From the NCBI GenBank assembly GCA_964247135.1, contig CAXTTL010000087.1:1-17650 (forward strand): a DNA stretch of 17,650 nt, given 5' to 3'. Of the stretch, positions 5,708 to 13,704 are shown in pieces. The stretch comes from an uncultured Deinococcales bacterium (lineage in GTDB: Bacteria > Deinococcota > Deinococci > Deinococcales > JAAFIG01). Every line of letters begins with the position of its first letter. Positions within the stretch are counted from its first letter, which is position 1. Made by a program: the position numbers and the translations under genes. The notes under the pieces are model-generated. The model ran no database searches. It worked only from the letters and a program-made list of their open reading frames with translations, and was not told where the DNA came from.

Positions 5708-5743
5708 CTAACGAGCGTTTGTTTTAAATTTAACAAACGTTCG
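5708..5743. promoter_or_regulatory. Two tandem TetR/PaaR-type operator boxes in the pckA leader
   Basis: CTAACGAGCGTTTG (5708-5721) fits CNAACGNNCGTTNG exactly. TTAACAAACGTTCG (5730-5743) fits with two mismatches. The boxes are 22 bp apart. Confidence 0.55.
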
Positions 5744-5770
5744 TCATACCCTCAAGTTCTCGGAGGAAAC

Positions 5771-7387
5771 ATGACGACCATTCAACATCCTCAAGCCATT
5801 GACCAAACCATGCCTCAAACCTCAGACCTTCTGGGTCGTATGCACCCACGCACCCTTTACCGCAACCTCAGCACGCCCAGACTGATCGAGGAAGCCCTCA
5901 AGCGCTTTGAAGGTTGGCTGACCAAAGACGGCGCTTTTATCGCGCATACAGGCGTTCACACGGGGCGCAGCGCCCAAGACAAATTCGTGGTCAAAACTGA
6001 CTCGAGTGACAAGATTTGGTGGGACAGCCCCTACCAAAAACCGCTCTCAGAACAACACTTTCAGACACTGCTGGGCGATGTACTCGAGCATTTTGAGGCT
6101 CGAGATACTTTTGTGCTCGACGCCTTCGCGGGTGCGGACGCCAAATTTCGTCTTCAAGTTCAAGTCATTACCGAATTCGCCTGGCACAACCATTTCGCCC
6201 GCAACATGTTCATTCCCTGCAACCCAACACAGGCTCGAGATTTTGTCGGCGATTTTACGGTGATCTGTGCACCAAGTTTTAAAGCCGACCCCGCACGGCA
6301 CGGCTCGAGGACTGAAACCCAGATCGTGATTTCGTTCGAGCACGGGGTGGTTTTGATTGTCGGCACCAGTTATGCGGGCGAGATCAAGAAAAGCATTTTT
6401 ACGGTCTTAAACCATCTCCTGCCCGCCCAAAACGTCATGCCCATGCACTGCTCGGCAAATATTGGCGCATCAGGCGACGTGGCATTGTTTTTCGGCATGA
6501 GCGGCACGGGCAAAACCACGCTCTCCGCCGACCCGACACGGGGCTTGATTGGCGACGACGAACACGGCTGGAGTGACGCTGGCGTCTTCAACTTCGAGGG
6601 CGGCTGTTACGCCAAAGTGATCGGCTTAAACCAAAACGTAGAACCCGAAATTTTTCAAACCACCCGCACCCCAGGCACGGTGCTCGAGAATGTGGTCTTT
6701 GACCTCGAAACCAGGGAAATTGATTTAAACGATGCCAGCCTGACCGAAAATACGCGCAGCGCTTACCCGTTAAGCCAGATTTCGGGCGCGGTCATCCCAA
6801 GCCTCGGCGGGCATCCCAAAAACATTATTTTTCTGGCAGCCGATGCGTTCGGGGTTTTACCACCGATCTCGGGTTTAACGCCGGAGCAAGCGATGTATTA
6901 CTTTTTAAACGGGTACACCGCCAAGATCGCGGGCACCGAAAAAGGCATTCTTGAGCCGCAAGCCAGCTTTGAAACCGCCTTCGGCGCACCATTTTTGACC
7001 CGCGAGCCTCAAGTCTATGCCGAATTGTTGCGCAAAAAAATCGCGCAACACGGCACAAAAGTCTGGCTGGTCAACACGGGCTGGACGGGTGGCGCCGCCG
7101 GTGTGGGCAAACGAATTCCAATCGCTTACACCCGAGCGATGGTTCGTGCCGCGCTCGAGGGCAAACTCGAGGGCGTGGCAACGAGCAGACACCCAATTTT
7201 TGGCTTGCACGTGCCGATTAACGTTGAAGGCGTGCCAAGTGCCGTTTTGAATCCTCGAGATTCTTGGACGGATCAAGACGCTTACGACTTGCAAGCCCGA
7301 AAACTGGCGCAAATGTTCACCAAAAATTTTGTGCAATTTGAACCTGGGGCTTCAGATTTGCTTAACAATTCAAACCCGACATTTTAA
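5771..7387 (+). CDS. pckA: Phosphoenolpyruvate carboxykinase (ATP), 538 aa
   Basis: HTGRS, YAGEIKK, MHCSAN, P-loop FGMSGTGKTTLS, LIGDDEHGW, FNFEGGCYAK, ENTR and WLVNTGW. Start reassigned to ATG 5771 after GGAGG. Confidence 0.97.
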   Translation: MTTIQHPQAIDQTMPQTSDLLGRMHPRTLYRNLSTPRLIEEALKRFEGWLTKDGAFIAHTGVHTGRSAQDKFVVKTDSSDKIWWDSPYQKPLSEQHFQTLLGDVLEHFEARDTFVLDAFAGADAKFRLQVQVITEFAWHNHFARNMFIPCNPTQARDFVGDFTVICAPSFKADPARHGSRTETQIVISFEHGVVLIVGTSYAGEIKKSIFTVLNHLLPAQNVMPMHCSANIGASGDVALFFGMSGTGKTTLSADPTRGLIGDDEHGWSDAGVFNFEGGCYAKVIGLNQNVEPEIFQTTRTPGTVLENVVFDLETREIDLNDASLTENTRSAYPLSQISGAVIPSLGGHPKNIIFLAADAFGVLPPISGLTPEQAMYYFLNGYTAKIAGTEKGILEPQASFETAFGAPFLTREPQVYAELLRKKIAQHGTKVWLVNTGWTGGAAGVGKRIPIAYTRAMVRAALEGKLEGVATSRHPIFGLHVPINVEGVPSAVLNPRDSWTDQDAYDLQARKLAQMFTKNFVQFEPGASDLLNNSNPTF

Positions 7388-7457: not shown

Positions 7458-7483
7458 CAATTGTCAGAGTTCTGTGACAATTG
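7458..7483. promoter_or_regulatory. Perfect inverted repeat upstream of the S8 peptidase gene (candidate operator)
   Basis: CAATTGTCA-N8-TGACAATTG, AT-rich, about 60 nt before the start codon. Confidence 0.4.
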
Positions 7484-7541
7484 ATATTGCATACTGCTTT
7501 CAAGTTCTGAATATCCTTGCAGTCTGAAACGAGAACACACA

Positions 7542-8762
7542 ATGACCGATAAAAATAACCTCGGTGGCGCCACTCGAATCATGATGCTCCCTGCCTTGTT
7601 GCTGGGCGTCGCCATCATGACATCGTGCAGTCAAAATATTTCCAAAGACCCAACAATCACAGACGCTCGAGCCGCAAAACCGCAAGTGCTGGTCAAATAC
7701 CAAATTGCCGAAAACAGCACCAGCGCCCGTGCAACAGGACGCAGCGCCTGGGCGACGGGGCGCAGTGCCTGGGCAACGGGGCGCAGCGCCTGGGCGACGG
7801 GCGATCCTGCAACGCTTGTCAATAACCTGGCGATTTGGACACAAATTCATTTGCAACAAGCCCAAACGCTCGCCCCGAACTGGGGTGCAGGCGTCAAGGT
7901 GGCTGTGATTGACACGGGCATTGACCTGAATCACCCAGCTTTTATGGGTCATCTGGCACCGAGCACCGATTGGAAAGACTTCATCGACGCTGATACCATC
8001 CCGCAAGAAGTCGCCGGTGGCGAGGCTTATGGACACGGCACAAGCGTTGCCAGCATCGTTTTGCAGGTGGCTCCAAAAGCACTCATCATGCCAATTCGGG
8101 TGCTTGACTCGAGCGGTACGGGCGACACCAATAAGATTGCCAGTGCGATTGACTGGGCAGCCCAGCACGGCGCGAAAGTGATTAATCTTTCGCTCGGCAC
8201 GGATGCCGCCAATTTTGATTGCGCGGTCCAAAAATCAGTGGCTTTGGCTATTCAAAATTACGGGACATTGATGGTTTTTGCGGCTGGAAACACGGGCGAC
8301 ACCAACATCAATTACCCTGCGATTACCGTCAAGTCCAATCCCAACAGCAACCCTGCCGTTAAAGCATGTCGCGCCGCGCCGTACAACTTGGTTCCTTCAC
8401 TCAATGCCAATGTCAATGTCGCCAGTATTTCGGTGGGCAGCGTCAACAGCCTCGATCAAAAATCGAATTTCTCGAGTTACGGTGAAAAACTCGAGATGGT
8501 TTCTCCAGGCGAAGACATTTACGGTCCTTATCCCGAAAATTCGGCGGCATCTTGGAGCGGAACCAGCATGTCAGCGCCACTCGTGACTGGGGCTTTGACC
8601 CTTGCCTTGGGTGAAAAACTAGGCTCTGGCATCAAAGTACAAGACTTACCCGATATTTTGATTGGCAAAACCGACAATGTTGATAGCCTAAACCCGAGCT
8701 TTGCCGGACAAATTGGCAAAGGGCGTTTGAACATCGAGAACTTTTTGAAATCCGTGTTTTAA
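7542..8762 (+). CDS. S8 family (subtilisin-like) serine peptidase, predicted lipoprotein, with a heptapeptide-repeat pro-region
   Basis: Catalytic motifs VAVIDTG, YGHGT, AAGN and SGTSMSAP; lipobox-like MTSC at residues 26-29. Confidence 0.93.
   Translation: MTDKNNLGGATRIMMLPALLLGVAIMTSCSQNISKDPTITDARAAKPQVLVKYQIAENSTSARATGRSAWATGRSAWATGRSAWATGDPATLVNNLAIWTQIHLQQAQTLAPNWGAGVKVAVIDTGIDLNHPAFMGHLAPSTDWKDFIDADTIPQEVAGGEAYGHGTSVASIVLQVAPKALIMPIRVLDSSGTGDTNKIASAIDWAAQHGAKVINLSLGTDAANFDCAVQKSVALAIQNYGTLMVFAAGNTGDTNINYPAITVKSNPNSNPAVKACRAAPYNLVPSLNANVNVASISVGSVNSLDQKSNFSSYGEKLEMVSPGEDIYGPYPENSAASWSGTSMSAPLVTGALTLALGEKLGSGIKVQDLPDILIGKTDNVDSLNPSFAGQIGKGRLNIENFLKSVF
7731..7802 (+). repeat. In-frame 21-bp tandem repeat x3.4 encoding (ATGRSAW)3-ATG
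   Basis: GCA ACA GGA CGC AGC GCC TGG / GCG ACG GGG CGC AGT GCC TGG / GCA ACG GGG CGC AGC GCC TGG / GCG ACG GGC. All differences are synonymous third-position changes. Confidence 0.95.
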
Positions 8763-8774
8763 ATTCAGTCTTTC

Positions 8775-8827
8775 AATTGACACCGGTCCCGAGAACGCAA
8801 GGCGTTTTCAGGATCGGTTTGTCAATT
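8775..8827 (+). terminator. Long hairpin after the S8 gene (terminator or RNA stabiliser)
   Basis: AATTGACACCGGTCCCGAGAACGC-AAG-GCGTTTTCAGGATCGGTTTGTCAATT pairs over about 23 bp with G-U pairs on the plus strand. No clean U-tract. Confidence 0.55.
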
Positions 8828-8900
8828 CGGAACATCTTCAAGGTTTTATTCTCAGTATGATAAAAGCCGCAGCGACCAGATTGGAGCTGTCAGCATTTTT

Positions 8901-11420
8901 ATGACCGAACCATCGACTCCACTCGAGACATCCCTCGGCGCCATTGCGCGTCTTGAGGGTCATGCCAAATTGAGTGCCTTAATCCAACTGGCAAAGGCGT
9001 TTCTCGAGGTTGGTTTGGAGCGCAATCCCAAGCTGGCATTGGAACTTGCCTTGGAAGCCAAAGATTTAGCCACCCAGTCAAGCAACATGGCTGCCTTGGC
9101 GCAAAGTCAAGCCATTCTGGGAACCTGTTATGTTGAGAGTGCAAGTTATGACGCAGCCCTTGAAGCGTTCAAGTCAGCCTTCAAACAATATGAACAACTT
9201 GAAGATCAGCGCGGCGCCACCAAAATGTTGCTCGAGCAAGGTCGAGTCTACAGAACGCTTGAACAGCACCAGAATGCTCGTGAGCAATTCGCCACCTCAC
9301 TGGAACTCAGTCGCCTTGCCAATGCCAAAGACCTTGAAGCAGATAACCTCAACGATTTGGCATCCATTTATGACTTGGAAGGCAACAACGTTCAAGCGAC
9401 CGATTTTATCAACCGTGCCCTCGAGATTCACAGCAGCTTAAAAGACGTGCGTGGACAGGTGAAATGCCTGATTAACCTTTCACTCTCACAACTTAAAATG
9501 ACCAACTATGACAAGGCGCTTGAACATGAATTACAAGCCTACAAACTCTTCCAAGAGCATCAGCTTAAAGACCCAGACCTTGAAGCGCGCTGCTTGATTG
9601 GTCTGGGCAATGTTTACGAAGAAATAGGCAACAACAAAACCGCCCTCGAGTTTTTCTCTGAAGCGGCGCAACTTGCGCAAAAGCATCAACTCAAAAACAC
9701 CCAAGTGTTGGCGACAGTCAACGCCGGCGAGGTGCAAAACAATTTAAAACACTACGATGCTGCAATTGAGGCTTTTAACCAGGCGCTCCGGATCGCCCGT
9801 GAGATCAGAATGCCTTCGGGTGCGCTTTACGCCTACCAGGGTTTGGGTAAAACCTTTAACAGTTTGGGCAAATACCTCGAGTCGCTCGAGGCGTATTTGC
9901 AATCCTTGGCGCTGGCTAAAAACATTGTTGACCGCGAAAGTGAAATCATTGCCCTGATCGGTTTGGGCGTCAACCAGCGCAGCCTTGGACGGTTCGAGAC
10001 CGCCACCGATTACTTTCAAGAAGCCCAAACTTTGGCACGCGCCACCAACCAGAAAAAATATGTTCAAGACAGCATTCAGGAGCTGGCTCAAACCTTTGAA
10101 ATGTCGGGCGATACAGGGAAAGCCTTGGCGTTTTACAAGGAATACCACCGTTTGGAAAAAGAAATTTTTAACTTGGAGTCCGAAAAGAAATCTCGAGATT
10201 TGGCGGTGCAATTTGACCTCGAGCGCAGCCAAACCCAAGCCGAGTTGTACCGTGTGCGCAGCGAGGCTTACAAGCAAAATGCCTTGGCGGCAGATCAAGC
10301 CAACCGTGCCAAATCCGAGTTTTTGTCGCGCATGAGTCACGAACTTCGCACGCCCTTGAATGCCATTTTGGGGTTCGCGCAACTCTTGGGCATCTCGAAC
10401 CTAAACCCCAATGACCGTGAGAGTGTCGAGCAAATCAGCCGAGCCGGCAGGCACTTGCTTGGACTGATCAACGAAGTGCTTGACATTGCCCGCATCGAAT
10501 CTGGACGAATTGACCTGTCCTTGGAAGCCATCAATCCGATGGAAATTGTGATTGAGAGCCTGGATTTGATCCGTCCGCTGGCGGTTCAATCGGGTATCGA
10601 ACTTTTAATCAACGAAGACCTGAGCAACCACCGATTGCGAATCACCGCCGACCGTCAACGTTTAAAACAAATCTTGATCAACCTGCTCTCGAACGCCGTG
10701 AAATACAACAAAAAAGCGGGTTCGGTCAGGGTCTGGCTCGAGTTAACGAGTGCCGAAAGATTGCGAATCAACATCACAGACACCGGCGTTGGCATCTCGG
10801 GCACCAAACTCGAGCAGTTGTTCACTCCTTTTGAGCGCCTCGGGGCGGAACAGAGCCGGATTGAGGGCAGCGGTATTGGTCTGGCGCTCTCCAAACGCCT
10901 GAGCGAGGCGATGTCTGGGCGAATTGGCGTCAGCAGCCGACCAAATGAGGGCAGCACTTTTTACATTGAACTGCCAGTCGCCTCAGAAATTTTGTCAACC
11001 GCCAACCCCCAACGCTCGGGCGAACCCGAGCTTGAAGCGCAGCCCATCAAACCCATTACGGTGGTTTACATCGAAGACAACCCTGCCAACATTCGACTGG
11101 TGCAATTGATTCTGGCAAACCGCCCACACGCGACCTTGTTGACCGCCACGGACGGTTTGAGCGGACTCGAGCTGGTTCGTGCGCAACAACCCAATGTGGT
11201 CCTGCTCGACTTGCACTTGCCCGATATTGAAGGCGGCGAGGTGCTAAACCGTTTGCAAGCCAACTCGAGCACCAAGCATATTCCGGTGGTGATTTTAAGC
11301 GCCGATGCCAACCCAGAACAAACCGCCAAGTTACTCGAGGCGGGCGCGAAGCAGTATTTGACCAAACCTTTTGATGTGCGTACATTCTTAAAAGTGCTCG
11401 ATGAAGTGCAGGGCACTTGA
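8901..11420 (+). CDS. Soluble hybrid sensor histidine kinase: TPR array - HisKA - HATPase_c - REC
   Basis: About 430 aa of TPR-like helical repeats (e.g. LGNVYEEIGNNKTALEFFSEA); H-box SEFLSRMSHELRTPLN; N-box NLLSNAVKYN; G1 DTGVGI; G2 GSGIGL; REC YIEDN...LLDLHLP...ILSA...LTKP. No obvious transmembrane segment. Confidence 0.95.
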   Translation: MTEPSTPLETSLGAIARLEGHAKLSALIQLAKAFLEVGLERNPKLALELALEAKDLATQSSNMAALAQSQAILGTCYVESASYDAALEAFKSAFKQYEQLEDQRGATKMLLEQGRVYRTLEQHQNAREQFATSLELSRLANAKDLEADNLNDLASIYDLEGNNVQATDFINRALEIHSSLKDVRGQVKCLINLSLSQLKMTNYDKALEHELQAYKLFQEHQLKDPDLEARCLIGLGNVYEEIGNNKTALEFFSEAAQLAQKHQLKNTQVLATVNAGEVQNNLKHYDAAIEAFNQALRIAREIRMPSGALYAYQGLGKTFNSLGKYLESLEAYLQSLALAKNIVDRESEIIALIGLGVNQRSLGRFETATDYFQEAQTLARATNQKKYVQDSIQELAQTFEMSGDTGKALAFYKEYHRLEKEIFNLESEKKSRDLAVQFDLERSQTQAELYRVRSEAYKQNALAADQANRAKSEFLSRMSHELRTPLNAILGFAQLLGISNLNPNDRESVEQISRAGRHLLGLINEVLDIARIESGRIDLSLEAINPMEIVIESLDLIRPLAVQSGIELLINEDLSNHRLRITADRQRLKQILINLLSNAVKYNKKAGSVRVWLELTSAERLRINITDTGVGISGTKLEQLFTPFERLGAEQSRIEGSGIGLALSKRLSEAMSGRIGVSSRPNEGSTFYIELPVASEILSTANPQRSGEPELEAQPIKPITVVYIEDNPANIRLVQLILANRPHATLLTATDGLSGLELVRAQQPNVVLLDLHLPDIEGGEVLNRLQANSSTKHIPVVILSADANPEQTAKLLEAGAKQYLTKPFDVRTFLKVLDEVQGT

Positions 11421-11479
11421 GCAGCCTTGAAGTGCAGGACACTCGAGCAGCCTTGAAGTGCAGGACACTCGAGCAGCCT
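11402..11479 (+). repeat. 26-bp tandem repeat x3 duplicating the 3' end of the kinase gene
   Basis: TGAAGTGCAGGGCACTTGAGCAGCCT (11402-11427, contains the stop), then TGAAGTGCAGGACACTCGAGCAGCCT twice (11428-11453, 11454-11479). Confidence 0.95.
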
Positions 11480-11530
11480 CGAGTCATGAAACTGTAAGAA
11501 TCACGGCGTTAAAGTAAGTACAAATTCGGT

Positions 11531-11569
11531 CAGTGAAGGTCAGGGACAGTAAAGGTCAGGGACAATGAA
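11531..11569 (+). repeat. 16-bp tandem duplication of the RBS region of the HD-GYP gene
   Basis: CAGTGAAGGTCAGGGA / CAGTAAAGGTCAGGGA / CAATGAA; the last partial unit contains the start ATG. Confidence 0.8.
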
Positions 11570-12665
11570 ACTCGAATCGCAACAAGCCAAAATTCTGATC
11601 GTCGATGACCAAGAAGCCAACATCTTGTTGCTCAGACGCTTGTTGCAAGAATTGGGTGGCTACGACCAAATCGCCAGCACCACCAACCCTCGAGAAACCT
11701 TTAACCTGCTGACCGACTTCGAACCCGACATTATTTTACTTGACCTCGCCATGCCCGAACTTGACGGTTTTGGCGTGATGGAACAACTCGGCATGATTCT
11801 GCCCAAAGACAGTTTTTTACCAATCATTGTCCTGACCGCCGACATTTCCGCCCTGACCAAACAACGCGCCCTGCAAGCTGGCGCCAGGGATTTCCTGACC
11901 AAACCGTTTGACAGCACCGAAGCCCTCTTGCGCATCCGCAACCTGCTCGAGACACGTTCGTTGCACCTTAAACTCGAGGCGCGGGTTCTGGAGCGCACCC
12001 ACGCCCTGCAAGAAGCCCACACCGAACTTTTTAACCGCGCCCTCGATCTCCAAGCCGCTCAAATCGAGGTGCTCGAGCGCCTCGGAGCCTGCGCCGAATT
12101 CCGCGACGATGCCACAGGACAACACACGCAGCGTGTGGGACACCTGGCAACCCAGGTGGCTCGGGTATTGGGCTTGCCAAATACCCAAATCGAATTGATT
12201 TCCAAAGCGGCACCTTTGCACGACGTTGGAAAAATCGGAATTTCGGATGCGATCTTGCTCAAACCGACGCGTCTAGACCCAATCGAACGCGCCCAGGTTG
12301 AACGCCACACGACCATCGGTGCCCATATTTTAAGACATGGACATTCGGAATTGATTCGCATGGCAGAAGAAATTGCCTTAACCCACCACGAACGATTTGA
12401 CGGTACGGGCTATCCCAACGGCTTGGCGGGCGAAGCGATTCCAATTTCTGGACGCATTGTTGCGATTGTGGACGTTTACGATGCCCTGACCCACGAACGC
12501 CCGTACAAACACGCCTGGAGTCACGAAGACGCCATGATTGAGATTAAAAATCAATCTGGCAAGAGTTTTGATCCAGCAGTGGTGGCGGCTTTTGTAGCCT
12601 TGATCGAGCAAAATGTAATTCTGCCCAATCAGGTACAACTCGAGTACGAACCCGAAAGTCGTTAA
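11565..12665 (+). CDS. Response regulator with HD-GYP cyclic-dinucleotide phosphodiesterase domain (RpfG-like)
   Basis: REC domain (ILIVDD, LLDLAMP, VLTA, LTKP); HD-GYP motifs HTQRV, LHDVGKIG, THHERFDGTGYP, DVYDAL, RPYK. Confidence 0.95.
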   Translation: MKLESQQAKILIVDDQEANILLLRRLLQELGGYDQIASTTNPRETFNLLTDFEPDIILLDLAMPELDGFGVMEQLGMILPKDSFLPIIVLTADISALTKQRALQAGARDFLTKPFDSTEALLRIRNLLETRSLHLKLEARVLERTHALQEAHTELFNRALDLQAAQIEVLERLGACAEFRDDATGQHTQRVGHLATQVARVLGLPNTQIELISKAAPLHDVGKIGISDAILLKPTRLDPIERAQVERHTTIGAHILRHGHSELIRMAEEIALTHHERFDGTGYPNGLAGEAIPISGRIVAIVDVYDALTHERPYKHAWSHEDAMIEIKNQSGKSFDPAVVAAFVALIEQNVILPNQVQLEYEPESR

Positions 12666-13203: not shown

Positions 13204-13704
13204 ATGGGACTTGAGGGCGTTGAAATGATTGTGAGGGTCGAAAATGCTTTTCAGATCAGCATTCCAGATATTGTGGCTGCCCGCATCCAGACCCCTCGAG
13301 ATTTGATTGATTACGTCTCGAGCAAGGTCTTGGTTGAAAGCTCAAAGCGCTGCGAAACGCAACGAATCTTTTATGCCATTCGCAAATTTGCTTCGGCTCG
13401 AGGTTCAATCCAGCCGAGCACCACACTGGCTGAATTGTTCAGACTTCAATCTTGGACTGTCATTCGAGAACAGCTTGAAATCAAGGATTTCGAGCATTTA
13501 CCAGGCAATATCTTTGGATTTAAATTGCGCACGGTACGCGAGCTGGTGTTCTGGATTGCAGAAGAGAACCAAGCCAGCAACAAACCGACCATTTGGACTC
13601 GAGAATCAATCGCATTGACGATACGGCGTGTGATTTCCGATGTCATCGGACTTCGTGGGTTTTCACAAAACGCTCAGTTGGTGCGGGACTTGGGTTTTAA
13701 TTAA
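13204..13704 (+). CDS. Acyl-carrier-protein-like hypothetical protein (permuted, lacks the phosphopantetheine Ser)
   Basis: N-terminus MGLEGVEMIVRVENAFQISIPDIVAARIQTPRDLIDYV resembles ACP helices II-IV. C-terminus IRRVISDVIG...NAQLVRDLG resembles ACP helix I and its loop. Starts 3 nt after the osmC stop. Confidence 0.7.
   Translation: MGLEGVEMIVRVENAFQISIPDIVAARIQTPRDLIDYVSSKVLVESSKRCETQRIFYAIRKFASARGSIQPSTTLAELFRLQSWTVIREQLEIKDFEHLPGNIFGFKLRTVRELVFWIAEENQASNKPTIWTRESIALTIRRVISDVIGLRGFSQNAQLVRDLGFN

Follow-up and report, generated by a model that had tools for sequence, protein, structure and literature searches.

What could connect an exported protease that carries the same short peptide three times over with a histidine kinase that has no export signal at all? 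The question is raised by three co-oriented genes at positions 7542-12665 of contig CAXTTL010000087.1 from an uncultured Deinococcales bacterium (the window, in what follows, is the whole 17,650-nucleotide stretch of DNA that was analysed). A first-pass annotation had read these genes as an S8-family lipoprotein subtilase (P0001), a soluble histidine kinase with a tetratricopeptide repeat (TPR) array (P0002) and a REC-HD-GYP protein acting on cyclic di-GMP (P0003; c-di-GMP), and had proposed that the protease is both the precursor and the maturase of a peptide sensed by the kinase. Open reading frames (ORFs) and Pfam agree with its coordinates and gene identities. Our analysis of the locus and its relatives leads us to regard an exported self-processing protease paired with a cytoplasmic peptide-binding array as very probably the core of the system, and below we ask how far the repeated peptide can be cast as the ligand of that array.

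P0001 matches Pfam PF00082 (Peptidase_S8) over residues 115-374 (E 2e-37, 129.3 bits against a cutoff of 21.8), and D124, H165, N250 and S342 are invariant in an alignment with 47 relatives, with Asp, His and Ser in the order seen in subtilases. The N-terminus is a signal peptide with the lipobox AIMTSC and Cys29, a residue kept in at least 90% of the 47 relatives. As had been noted from the sequence, the pro-region is short, consisting of residues 30-63 (34 residues) plus three ATGRSAW units at residues 64-70, 71-77 and 78-84, with a partial ATG at 85-87 immediately ahead of the catalytic domain; in the corresponding DNA, Tandem Repeats Finder reports 3.9 copies with a period of 21 at 7721-7801 (score 113). 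The AlphaFold2 model has a predicted local distance difference test value (pLDDT) <50 over residues 1-88 and becomes ordered at about residue 89. Among solved structures the closest relative is thermitase (E 2e-32), whose residue 22 aligns to P0001 residue 106; by homology the mature N-terminus is thus placed at about 85-87, just behind the last Trp. The last Trp, the thermitase-equivalent mature N-terminus and the point where the model turns ordered thus coincide. Neither an I9 nor a fervidolysin prodomain was matched by Pfam at E<=1 in P0001 or nine Deinococcota relatives; the S8 protein of an Acidobacteriota locus (L011) does carry a Fervidolysin_NPro-like prodomain.

The Trp repeat is a trait of the family and not a local accident. 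A homologue search over 5.8 billion proteins gave more than 1,200 P0001 relatives, of which the best 120 were used (the named members among them belong to Deinococcus and Trueperaceae), and the repeat counts rest on the 119 of these with a usable N-terminus. Strict tandem repeats were found in 100 of the 119, with 2-6 copies, a period of 7 in 91 and of 8 in 9, and Trp in every unit, while the other 19 have degenerate or compound Trp repeats such as the A-B-A arrangement SRSIWASG-DIQAWAGG-SRSIWASG. The period-7 consensus is [S/A/G]-[G/T/S]-G-[R/W/K]-[S/K/A]-[A/S/T]-W, and in 88 of the 100 strict-repeat homologues the last Trp lies 40-43 residues ahead of the catalytic Asp. Most of the distant members carry about 100 additional N-terminal residues without a Pfam match, a segment that the window's own clade (73-85% identity, metagenomic proteins) lacks.

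Within a given protein the units are the same peptide written in different codons. The three copies in P0001 differ at 6 codons, with 6 synonymous versus 0 non-synonymous differences, and the copies in L004 show 21 versus 0. Over the 20 genes with at least two detected copies, adjacent copies gave 137 synonymous versus 13 non-synonymous differences in 352 codon comparisons, a count biased by the use of amino-acid identity to find the repeats. About 39% of the repeat codons differ silently, and the copies are therefore old at the DNA level and kept identical as protein; selection maintains the identity of the units. One position is lineage-specific: among 20 close orthologues the residue after each Trp (columns 71, 78 and 85) has an entropy of 2.3-2.45 bits with 6-7 different residues, which makes it more variable than all 319 mature-domain columns, and it is identical in all copies within each protein. 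A64, the equivalent position ahead of the first unit, is invariant in the same orthologues. This concerted variability and the invariant A64 together argue that the functional unit includes R-S-A-W-x, whatever its exact register, and identical units with a hypervariable, concertedly changing residue fit a specific ligand. One plasmid-borne protease (L092, Deinococcus sp. D7000, 5728-6900) carries four AGAFVT units, in which Phe takes the place that Trp holds in all other units, its copies differing by 11 synonymous and 0 non-synonymous codon changes.

The pairing of this protease with a TPR sensor was followed through a Deinococcota set of 23 loci, namely the window, L001-L004 (from a scan of genome contigs, which gave at least 4 loci) and L081-L098 (plasmid replicons). 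The last group came from a tblastn search against PLSDB that yielded 18 Deinococcus replicon records from 14 species or strains, every one of which was inspected. The synteny proposed at the outset was borne out: in 20 of the 23 loci the protease has as its neighbour a cytoplasmic protein with a TPR array of this type at the N-terminus, the array spanning about 370-480 aa where full-length. In 18/18 Deinococcus replicon loci, a mixture of orthologues and paralogues that does not represent 18 independent events, the S8 gene adjoins a TPR_12/MalT-like array fused to HD-GYP, GGDEF and/or EAL domains (Table 1). The partner is directly downstream and co-oriented in 17 of the 18, with gaps ranging from 2 bp to about 1 kb, and in L084 it lies upstream of the S8 gene across an IS630 element. 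In L004, from a Deinococcales metagenome-assembled genome, the downstream TPR gene overlaps the end of the S8 gene, and overlapping or <=10-bp junctions are seen in L004, L087, L091, L096, L097 and L098. The proteases are exported lipoproteins, and the TPR partners are cytoplasmic, with a signal peptide or membrane span in 0 of the 23 examined (maximum 19-residue Kyte-Doolittle mean 1.67). Distances between S8 catalytic domains and between TPR arrays co-vary over 16 single modules (Mantel r 0.82, 0/5000 permutations), and the two are therefore co-inherited as a unit.

Duplication of the protease is accompanied by duplication of the array. In all three plasmid loci with two tandem S8 genes (L081, L086 and L089, on D. 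taeanensis and D. deserti plasmids, which are related to each other and are not three independent events) the next gene encodes one protein of 1238-1251 aa with two TPR arrays. The tandem proteases carry different units, one of the GYSAWSS type and one of the GSFGAWAS type, and assignment of each protease to an array by Mantel correlation was near-equal (r 0.81 vs 0.80 for the alternatives). On the D. taeanensis plasmids, five S8 genes and three TPR proteins were found within one genome.

The arrangement also extends to other phyla. When a custom TPR profile followed by Pfam was run over all fetched loci, a TPR-CHAT gene was found directly upstream of the S8 gene in 12 loci among the matches listed, from Chloroflexota, Planctomycetota, Actinomycetota, Ignavibacteria, Armatimonadota and Acidobacteriota (six phyla). 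The TPR-CHAT proteins are about 940-1045 aa long, and cytoplasmic in the three that were checked. Three of the 12 linked S8 genes, all from Pyrinomonadaceae, possess Trp repeats (GGSWSI, GRSWAV and GNTWSV); in these three loci FG-GAP-repeat proteins are adjacent (with CHRD in two), and sigma-70 region-2 ORFs lie nearby in two. Among the other 63 non-Deinococcota S8 loci in the matches listed, which are mostly more distant, an adjacent TPR match occurs only in L053, where it is a BTAD regulator on the opposite strand, and the TPR link therefore belongs to this S8 clade. A limited literature search found no description of the TPR-CHAT/S8 arrangement.

On the receptor side, the P0002 array comprises ten 40-residue TPR units in a model with a pLDDT of 90.4. 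P0002 lacks both a signal peptide and a membrane span (its 19-residue Kyte-Doolittle mean peaks at 1.07), and it shares with the RRNPP family of peptide sensors the form of a soluble, cytoplasmic protein built of TPR-type repeats. That much of the initial description of the kinase stands; what it had missed is a receiver at the C-terminus (residues 721-832). HisKA, HATPase_c and this receiver all score above their Pfam cutoffs and the H-box SHELRTPLN is readable, and P0002 is therefore a hybrid histidine kinase (HK-REC). The best sequence match of its array among solved structures is LGN/Pins (E 7e-17, about 22% identity), with RapF reaching only E 2.6e-3 over residues 154-339. Foldseek likewise returned LGN as the best fold match of the model (E 6e-13), the top matches being LGN with NuMA, Inscuteable or Frmpd4 and TONSOKU with histone H3.1, and the highest query-normalised TM-score (0.69) was to APPBP2 with the RxxGP degron; the LGN/Pins, TONSOKU and APPBP2 entries were all deposited as complexes with partner proteins or peptides. 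No RRNPP structure was among the top 50 Foldseek matches listed. Judged by sequence and predicted model, the P0002 array is of the LGN/Pins kind, with no detectable homology to RRNPP receptors.

About 20 orthologous TPR-HK-REC proteins share 66-89% identity over the TPR region, and six of these can be placed on the same contigs as S8 orthologues, as judged from equal longest-contig sizes (28844, 134598, 85636, 13448, 22885 and 15897). In P0003 the HD_5 domain scores 112.9 bits and the motifs HDVGK and HHERFDGTGYP are intact, as is characteristic of an HD-GYP phosphodiesterase and as had been annotated. The TPR-HD-GYP fusions of Deinococcus offer a Rosetta-stone argument for wiring of the kinase to the HD-GYP protein, and by this analogy we infer that P0002 phosphorylates the adjacent P0003.

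The conserved core is the gene pair itself. One member is an exported, lipid-anchored subtilase in which the pro/mature junction is reiterated as 2-6 identical units, each of 7-8 residues and of the form small-G/T/S-G-x-x-small-W; the other is a cytoplasmic TPR superhelix of the LGN type with a signalling output under its control. In the mechanism that we propose, the protease would cut itself after export at the reiterated junction, thereby freeing the catalytic domain from its lipid anchor and also liberating the units as short peptides, n per enzyme molecule. After uptake, the peptides would occupy the concave groove of the TPR array. In Deinococcus the array would act on directly fused HD-GYP, GGDEF or EAL domains; in the window this logic would be split, with the array controlling a hybrid kinase that phosphorylates the adjacent REC-HD-GYP protein and so changes c-di-GMP. 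In an alternative form, autoprocessing would expose the repeat segment as the TPR ligand rather than free peptides. The steps that we infer are cutting at every unit, the liberation of the peptides and their entry into the cell, their binding by the TPR array, the direction of the response and the phosphotransfer. For the complete chain, from self-cleavage at the junction through release and uptake of the unit peptides to TPR binding and a c-di-GMP output, we consider the chances to fall just short of even. That the reiterated unit is the TPR ligand seems to us evenly balanced, and it is what most simply accounts for the identical copies, the hypervariable residue that changes in concert and the matching of two proteases to two arrays. 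That the units act after release and re-import, in the manner of RRNPP pheromones, is plausible, with the balance somewhat against it. A predicted complex of the TPR array (residues 1-450) with S8 residues 55-95, run without controls, scored 0.02 against a mark of 0.32, a value that favours neither side on binding. Comparison of the post-Trp residue with the kinase showed that 12 of 155 variable TPR columns partition like its A and F classes, versus 8 of 105 in the kinase part, in a set of seven contig-matched pairs where two F-type kinases are 94-97% identical sisters and phylogeny confounds the comparison.

Several observations weigh against this mechanism. The repeat-bearing S8 genes of L001, L002 and L003 have no TPR sensor as a neighbour, L097 and L098 retain the TPR partner but show no clear repeat, and the units of L092 have Phe in place of Trp. 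Nine of the 12 TPR-CHAT-linked S8 genes are without a tandem repeat, and the most that any of them shows is one junction motif, xAWGG or WAWGG, as in L005 and L008. Taken with L097 and L098, these show that TPR-S8 coupling does not strictly need reiterated units, and reiteration of the junction is a later elaboration within the S8 clade. For the proposed relay, Pfam found no Hpt domain in P0002 or in the 17 other ORFs scanned in the window, and REC-HD-GYP clusters could be placed on a contig with kinase orthologues in only 3 of 10 close orthologue clusters (one with all three genes), so that the third gene is less firmly tied to the module. For the proposed uptake, no peptide importer is conserved beside the module, an ABC binding-protein operon being present near L082 only. 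The detection bias in the codon counts and the shared ancestry of the plasmid loci count on the same side.

Some of these points favour a different account, in which the repeats are only reiterated autoprocessing or pseudo-substrate sites, serving as a stepwise maturation timer or as a tethered inhibitor in place of the prodomain, and the TPR array senses other protease products, e.g. peptides from environmental proteins. The position of the repeats exactly at the pro/mature junction, the single xAWGG junctions of L005 and L008, the TPR-CHAT partners of repeat-less S8 genes and the lack of a detectable I9 prodomain in P0001 all agree with it, and the hypervariable post-Trp residue could be the P1' residue of each cut site. 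We nevertheless hold this account to be unlikely, as it leaves unexplained the strict identity of 2-6 copies over saturated synonymous divergence, the concerted change of the most variable residue of the protein, and the two proteases matched by two TPR arrays.

A second possibility, which we judge to be distinctly unlikely, places the interaction inside the cell: the array would recognise the repeat segment while the precursor is still unexported or unprocessed, serving as its chaperone or gauging the secretion load, and would report precursor accumulation to c-di-GMP, a kinase or CHAT, with no re-import involved. Protease and TPR partner are both synthesised in the cytoplasm, which the latter never leaves, the neighbourhoods hold no conserved importer, and a ten-TPR array could hold an extended, multivalent segment of 20-40 residues much as LGN holds extended multivalent segments of its partner proteins. 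Lipoprotein precursors are, however, normally exported fast, and the lineage-specific residue and the D. taeanensis paralogues (five S8, three TPR) are better suited to orthogonal signals than to a general monitor of secretion.

Multi-core precursors are known in cyanobactins and fungal dikaritins, and this precedent would allow the repeats to be core peptides of a Trp-modified, ribosomally synthesised and post-translationally modified peptide (RiPP), with the protease as leader or maturase and no connection to the TPR proteins. P0001 does show a weak similarity to the PatA/PatG cyanobactin proteases (NCBIfam TIGR03895), and upstream of the S8-TPR pair in L004 (L004:701-5610) are an ABC exporter, a Transglut_core3 (PF13471) gene, an asparagine-synthase-like gene and a Rieske oxygenase gene, which by their sequences look like a lasso-peptide-type cluster. 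At 54.5 bits, however, the PatA/PatG score falls far under the cutoff of 421, and no modifying enzyme is common to the 23 Deinococcota neighbourhoods, where the TPR protein is the sole recurrent neighbour; the RiPP reading was rejected on the latter ground and is highly improbable. That three unrelated genes have simply come to lie together, as the intergenic gaps of 139 and 145 bp and the promoter-like sites before the S8 and HD-GYP genes might suggest, can hardly be credited and is already contradicted by pairing in 20/23 Deinococcota and 12 other-phyla loci with varied gene orders and outputs, by the co-divergence (r 0.82) and by the overlapping or near-abutting junctions described above.

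The positions of the module's features, along with the domain architectures of the TPR partners in other loci, are given in Table 1.

Table 1. Features of the module in the window, and loci grouped by the architecture of the TPR partner.
Feature	Position or loci	Strand	Basis or remark
Lipoprotein subtilase (S8), P0001, 406 aa	7542..8762	+	
Signal peptide and lipobox ending at Cys29	7542..7628	+	read from translation
Three ATGRSAW units (aa 64-84) and partial ATG (85-87), pro/mature junction	7731..7802	+	
S8 catalytic domain, aa 88-406, triad D124, H165, S342	7803..8759	+	Pfam, alignment, AlphaFold2
Cytoplasmic hybrid histidine kinase, P0002, 839 aa	8901..11420	+	
P0002 TPR superhelix, aa 1-404	8901-10112	+	
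P0002 coiled-coil, aa 405-449	within 8901..11420	+	
P0002 HisKA, aa 470-535	10308-10505	+	Pfam
P0002 HATPase_c, aa 584-694	10650-10982	+	Pfam
P0002 REC, aa 721-832	11061-11396	+	Pfam
Response regulator with HD-GYP c-di-GMP phosphodiesterase domain, P0003	11565..12665	+	
P0003 REC, aa 10-123	11592-11933	+	Pfam
P0003 HD-GYP (HD_5), aa 178-339	12096-12581	+	Pfam
Palindrome CAATTGTCA-N8-TGACAATTG, candidate operator	7458..7483	unspecified	overlaps promoter-like site 7461-7488
26-bp direct repeat x3, 96% identical	11402..11479	unspecified	spans kinase stop codon and intergenic region
16-bp repeat x2	11531-11564	unspecified	abuts HD-GYP start codon
TPR-HDGYP-GGDEF	L082, L083, L087, L093		L093: D. 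radiodurans, gene split by transposase
TPR-HDGYP	L085, L088, L092		
TPR-GGDEF-EAL	L090, L091, L094-L098		
TPR-GGDEF	L084		
TPR-HDGYP-TPR-GGDEF	L081, L086, L089		
TPR-CHAT/S8 loci	L005-L009, L011, L014, L016, L017, L019, L030, L036		

The non-coding DNA of the module holds several further elements. The promoter-like site overlapped by the palindrome is the sole one upstream of the S8 gene, a further promoter-like site precedes the HD-GYP gene, and no terminator-like site was found on the + strand between the module genes. The 9-mer of the palindrome has three exact copies in the window, none of them outside the two intergenic regions that precede the S8 gene and the kinase gene, with half-sites resembling it at 8774-8782 and 8820-8828 ahead of the kinase gene; at one mismatch it is not enriched in the window (10 matches vs 11.8 expected). 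Palindrome and half-sites may constitute a shared operator of the two genes. The 26-bp repeat starts before the kinase gene has ended, in its final codons, and occupies the intergenic region behind it. Downstream of the module, a 166-aa ORF at 13204-13704, between OsmC and a 630-aa beta-lactamase-fold protein, has a sub-threshold PP-binding domain as its sole match (E 5.7e-4).

Three of the other Deinococcota loci deserve mention for their surroundings. Divergent to and upstream of the S8-TPR pair in L082 (L082:1-5208) are genes for an ABC substrate-binding protein, two permeases, an Xaa-Pro peptidase and an IclR regulator, and these ABC genes could encode a peptide importer. In L002 a 961-aa ORF after the proteases was considered and rejected, since it has no Pfam or TPR match and its composition suggests a spurious frame. 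The protease of L093 (L093:5611-10841, D. radiodurans isolate DRR11) has two long-period units, LGARPIWIW, and its split TPR-HDGYP-GGDEF partner matches DR_A0342, a gene with HD-GYP and GGDEF domains that is split by IS2621 in one strain, according to the passage on it in PMC11219805. That passage makes no mention of the protease.

Full-text literature searches, with subscription journals and supplements outside their scope, turned up no account of subtilases with Trp repeats or of such proteases paired with TPR sensors. If the repeat units are the ligand, Bacillota would not be alone in using cytoplasmic TPR receptors for peptide signalling, the radiation-resistant Deinococcus group would have a direct link from an extracellular protease to c-di-GMP and thereby to a biofilm, motility or stress lifestyle switch, and the union of precursor and maturase in one polypeptide would be a new design. 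It would also supply a ligand hypothesis for TPR-GGDEF/EAL/HD-GYP proteins, including DR_A0342 of D. radiodurans, a gene that is uninterrupted in strain R1, and as the predicted peptides are short, Trp-containing and easily synthesised, the question is directly testable. Even if the pairing alone holds, the S8/TPR module, including its TPR-CHAT form in six phyla, is a conserved unit. It is exciting to think further of a cross-phylum class of self-reporting secreted proteases, whose junctions would be pheromone-like polyproteins read by non-RRNPP TPR receptors with c-di-GMP, kinase or CHAT outputs, with the post-Trp residue as a pherotype, paralogous modules orthogonal to one another, and Deinococcota possessing their first peptide quorum-sensing-like system, although a picture this broad must be called doubtful.

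How does the module compare with systems already described? Classical subtilisin and thermitase likewise possess an N-terminal pro-segment and a junction about 37 residues before the catalytic Asp; unlike them, the P0001 family has no detected I9 fold, and its junction is reiterated 2-6 times with an invariant Trp. In yeast, alpha-factor is released as several identical tandem peptide copies by the S8-family kexin Kex2. Identity of the copies at the protein level and an S8-family protease are thus common to both, whereas the yeast system is eukaryotic, has its precursor and protease in separate genes and uses a surface G-protein-coupled receptor. The enterococcal sex pheromones, which derive from lipoprotein signal peptides, resemble the present case in that the signal is part of the precursor of an exported lipoprotein with a function of its own and has a cytoplasmic TPR-type protein as its receptor, but there the peptide comes from the signal peptide itself, in one copy, and is cut by Eep. 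In the diffusible signal factor system of Xanthomonas, the hybrid sensor kinase RpfC relays a signal between cells to RpfG, a REC-HD-GYP regulator that degrades c-di-GMP. The window shares the pairing of a hybrid kinase with REC-HD-GYP, and differs from RpfC-RpfG in that the latter has a fatty-acid signal, a membrane-bound sensor and, in RpfC, an Hpt domain. LGN/Pins (GPSM2) is closest to the P0002 array in both sequence and fold, its entries are co-crystals with partner proteins, and such partners lie as extended peptides in its inner groove; LGN is, however, a eukaryotic scaffold without enzymatic output.

The comparison made in the first-pass annotation was with RRNPP receptors. The RRNPP (or RRNPPA) systems of Bacillota include Rap-Phr, NprR-NprX, PlcR-PapR, PrgX and AimR-AimP, and in them, as here, the gene for a cytoplasmic TPR-type receptor lies beside that for an exported precursor. 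Subtilisin-type enzymes process the Phr peptides, and Opp brings them into the cell. The soluble receptor and the similar logic uphold this comparison, while homology, type of precursor and output set the two apart: the P0002 array shows no detectable membership of the family, the candidate peptide lies inside a 406-aa protease instead of a small exported propeptide ORF, so that the locus can be explained without one, the outputs are c-di-GMP enzymes, a histidine kinase or CHAT in place of helix-turn-helix or Rap phosphatase domains, and the hosts are Deinococcota, whereas abstracts place RRNPP systems in Firmicutes/Bacillota. The closest published parallel that we found is in PMC11343458, according to which extracellular proteases mature the Phr pheromone and some Phr propeptides carry tandemly duplicated pheromones. 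Taken as a whole, the system would be RRNPP-like in its logic without being a member of the RRNPP family.

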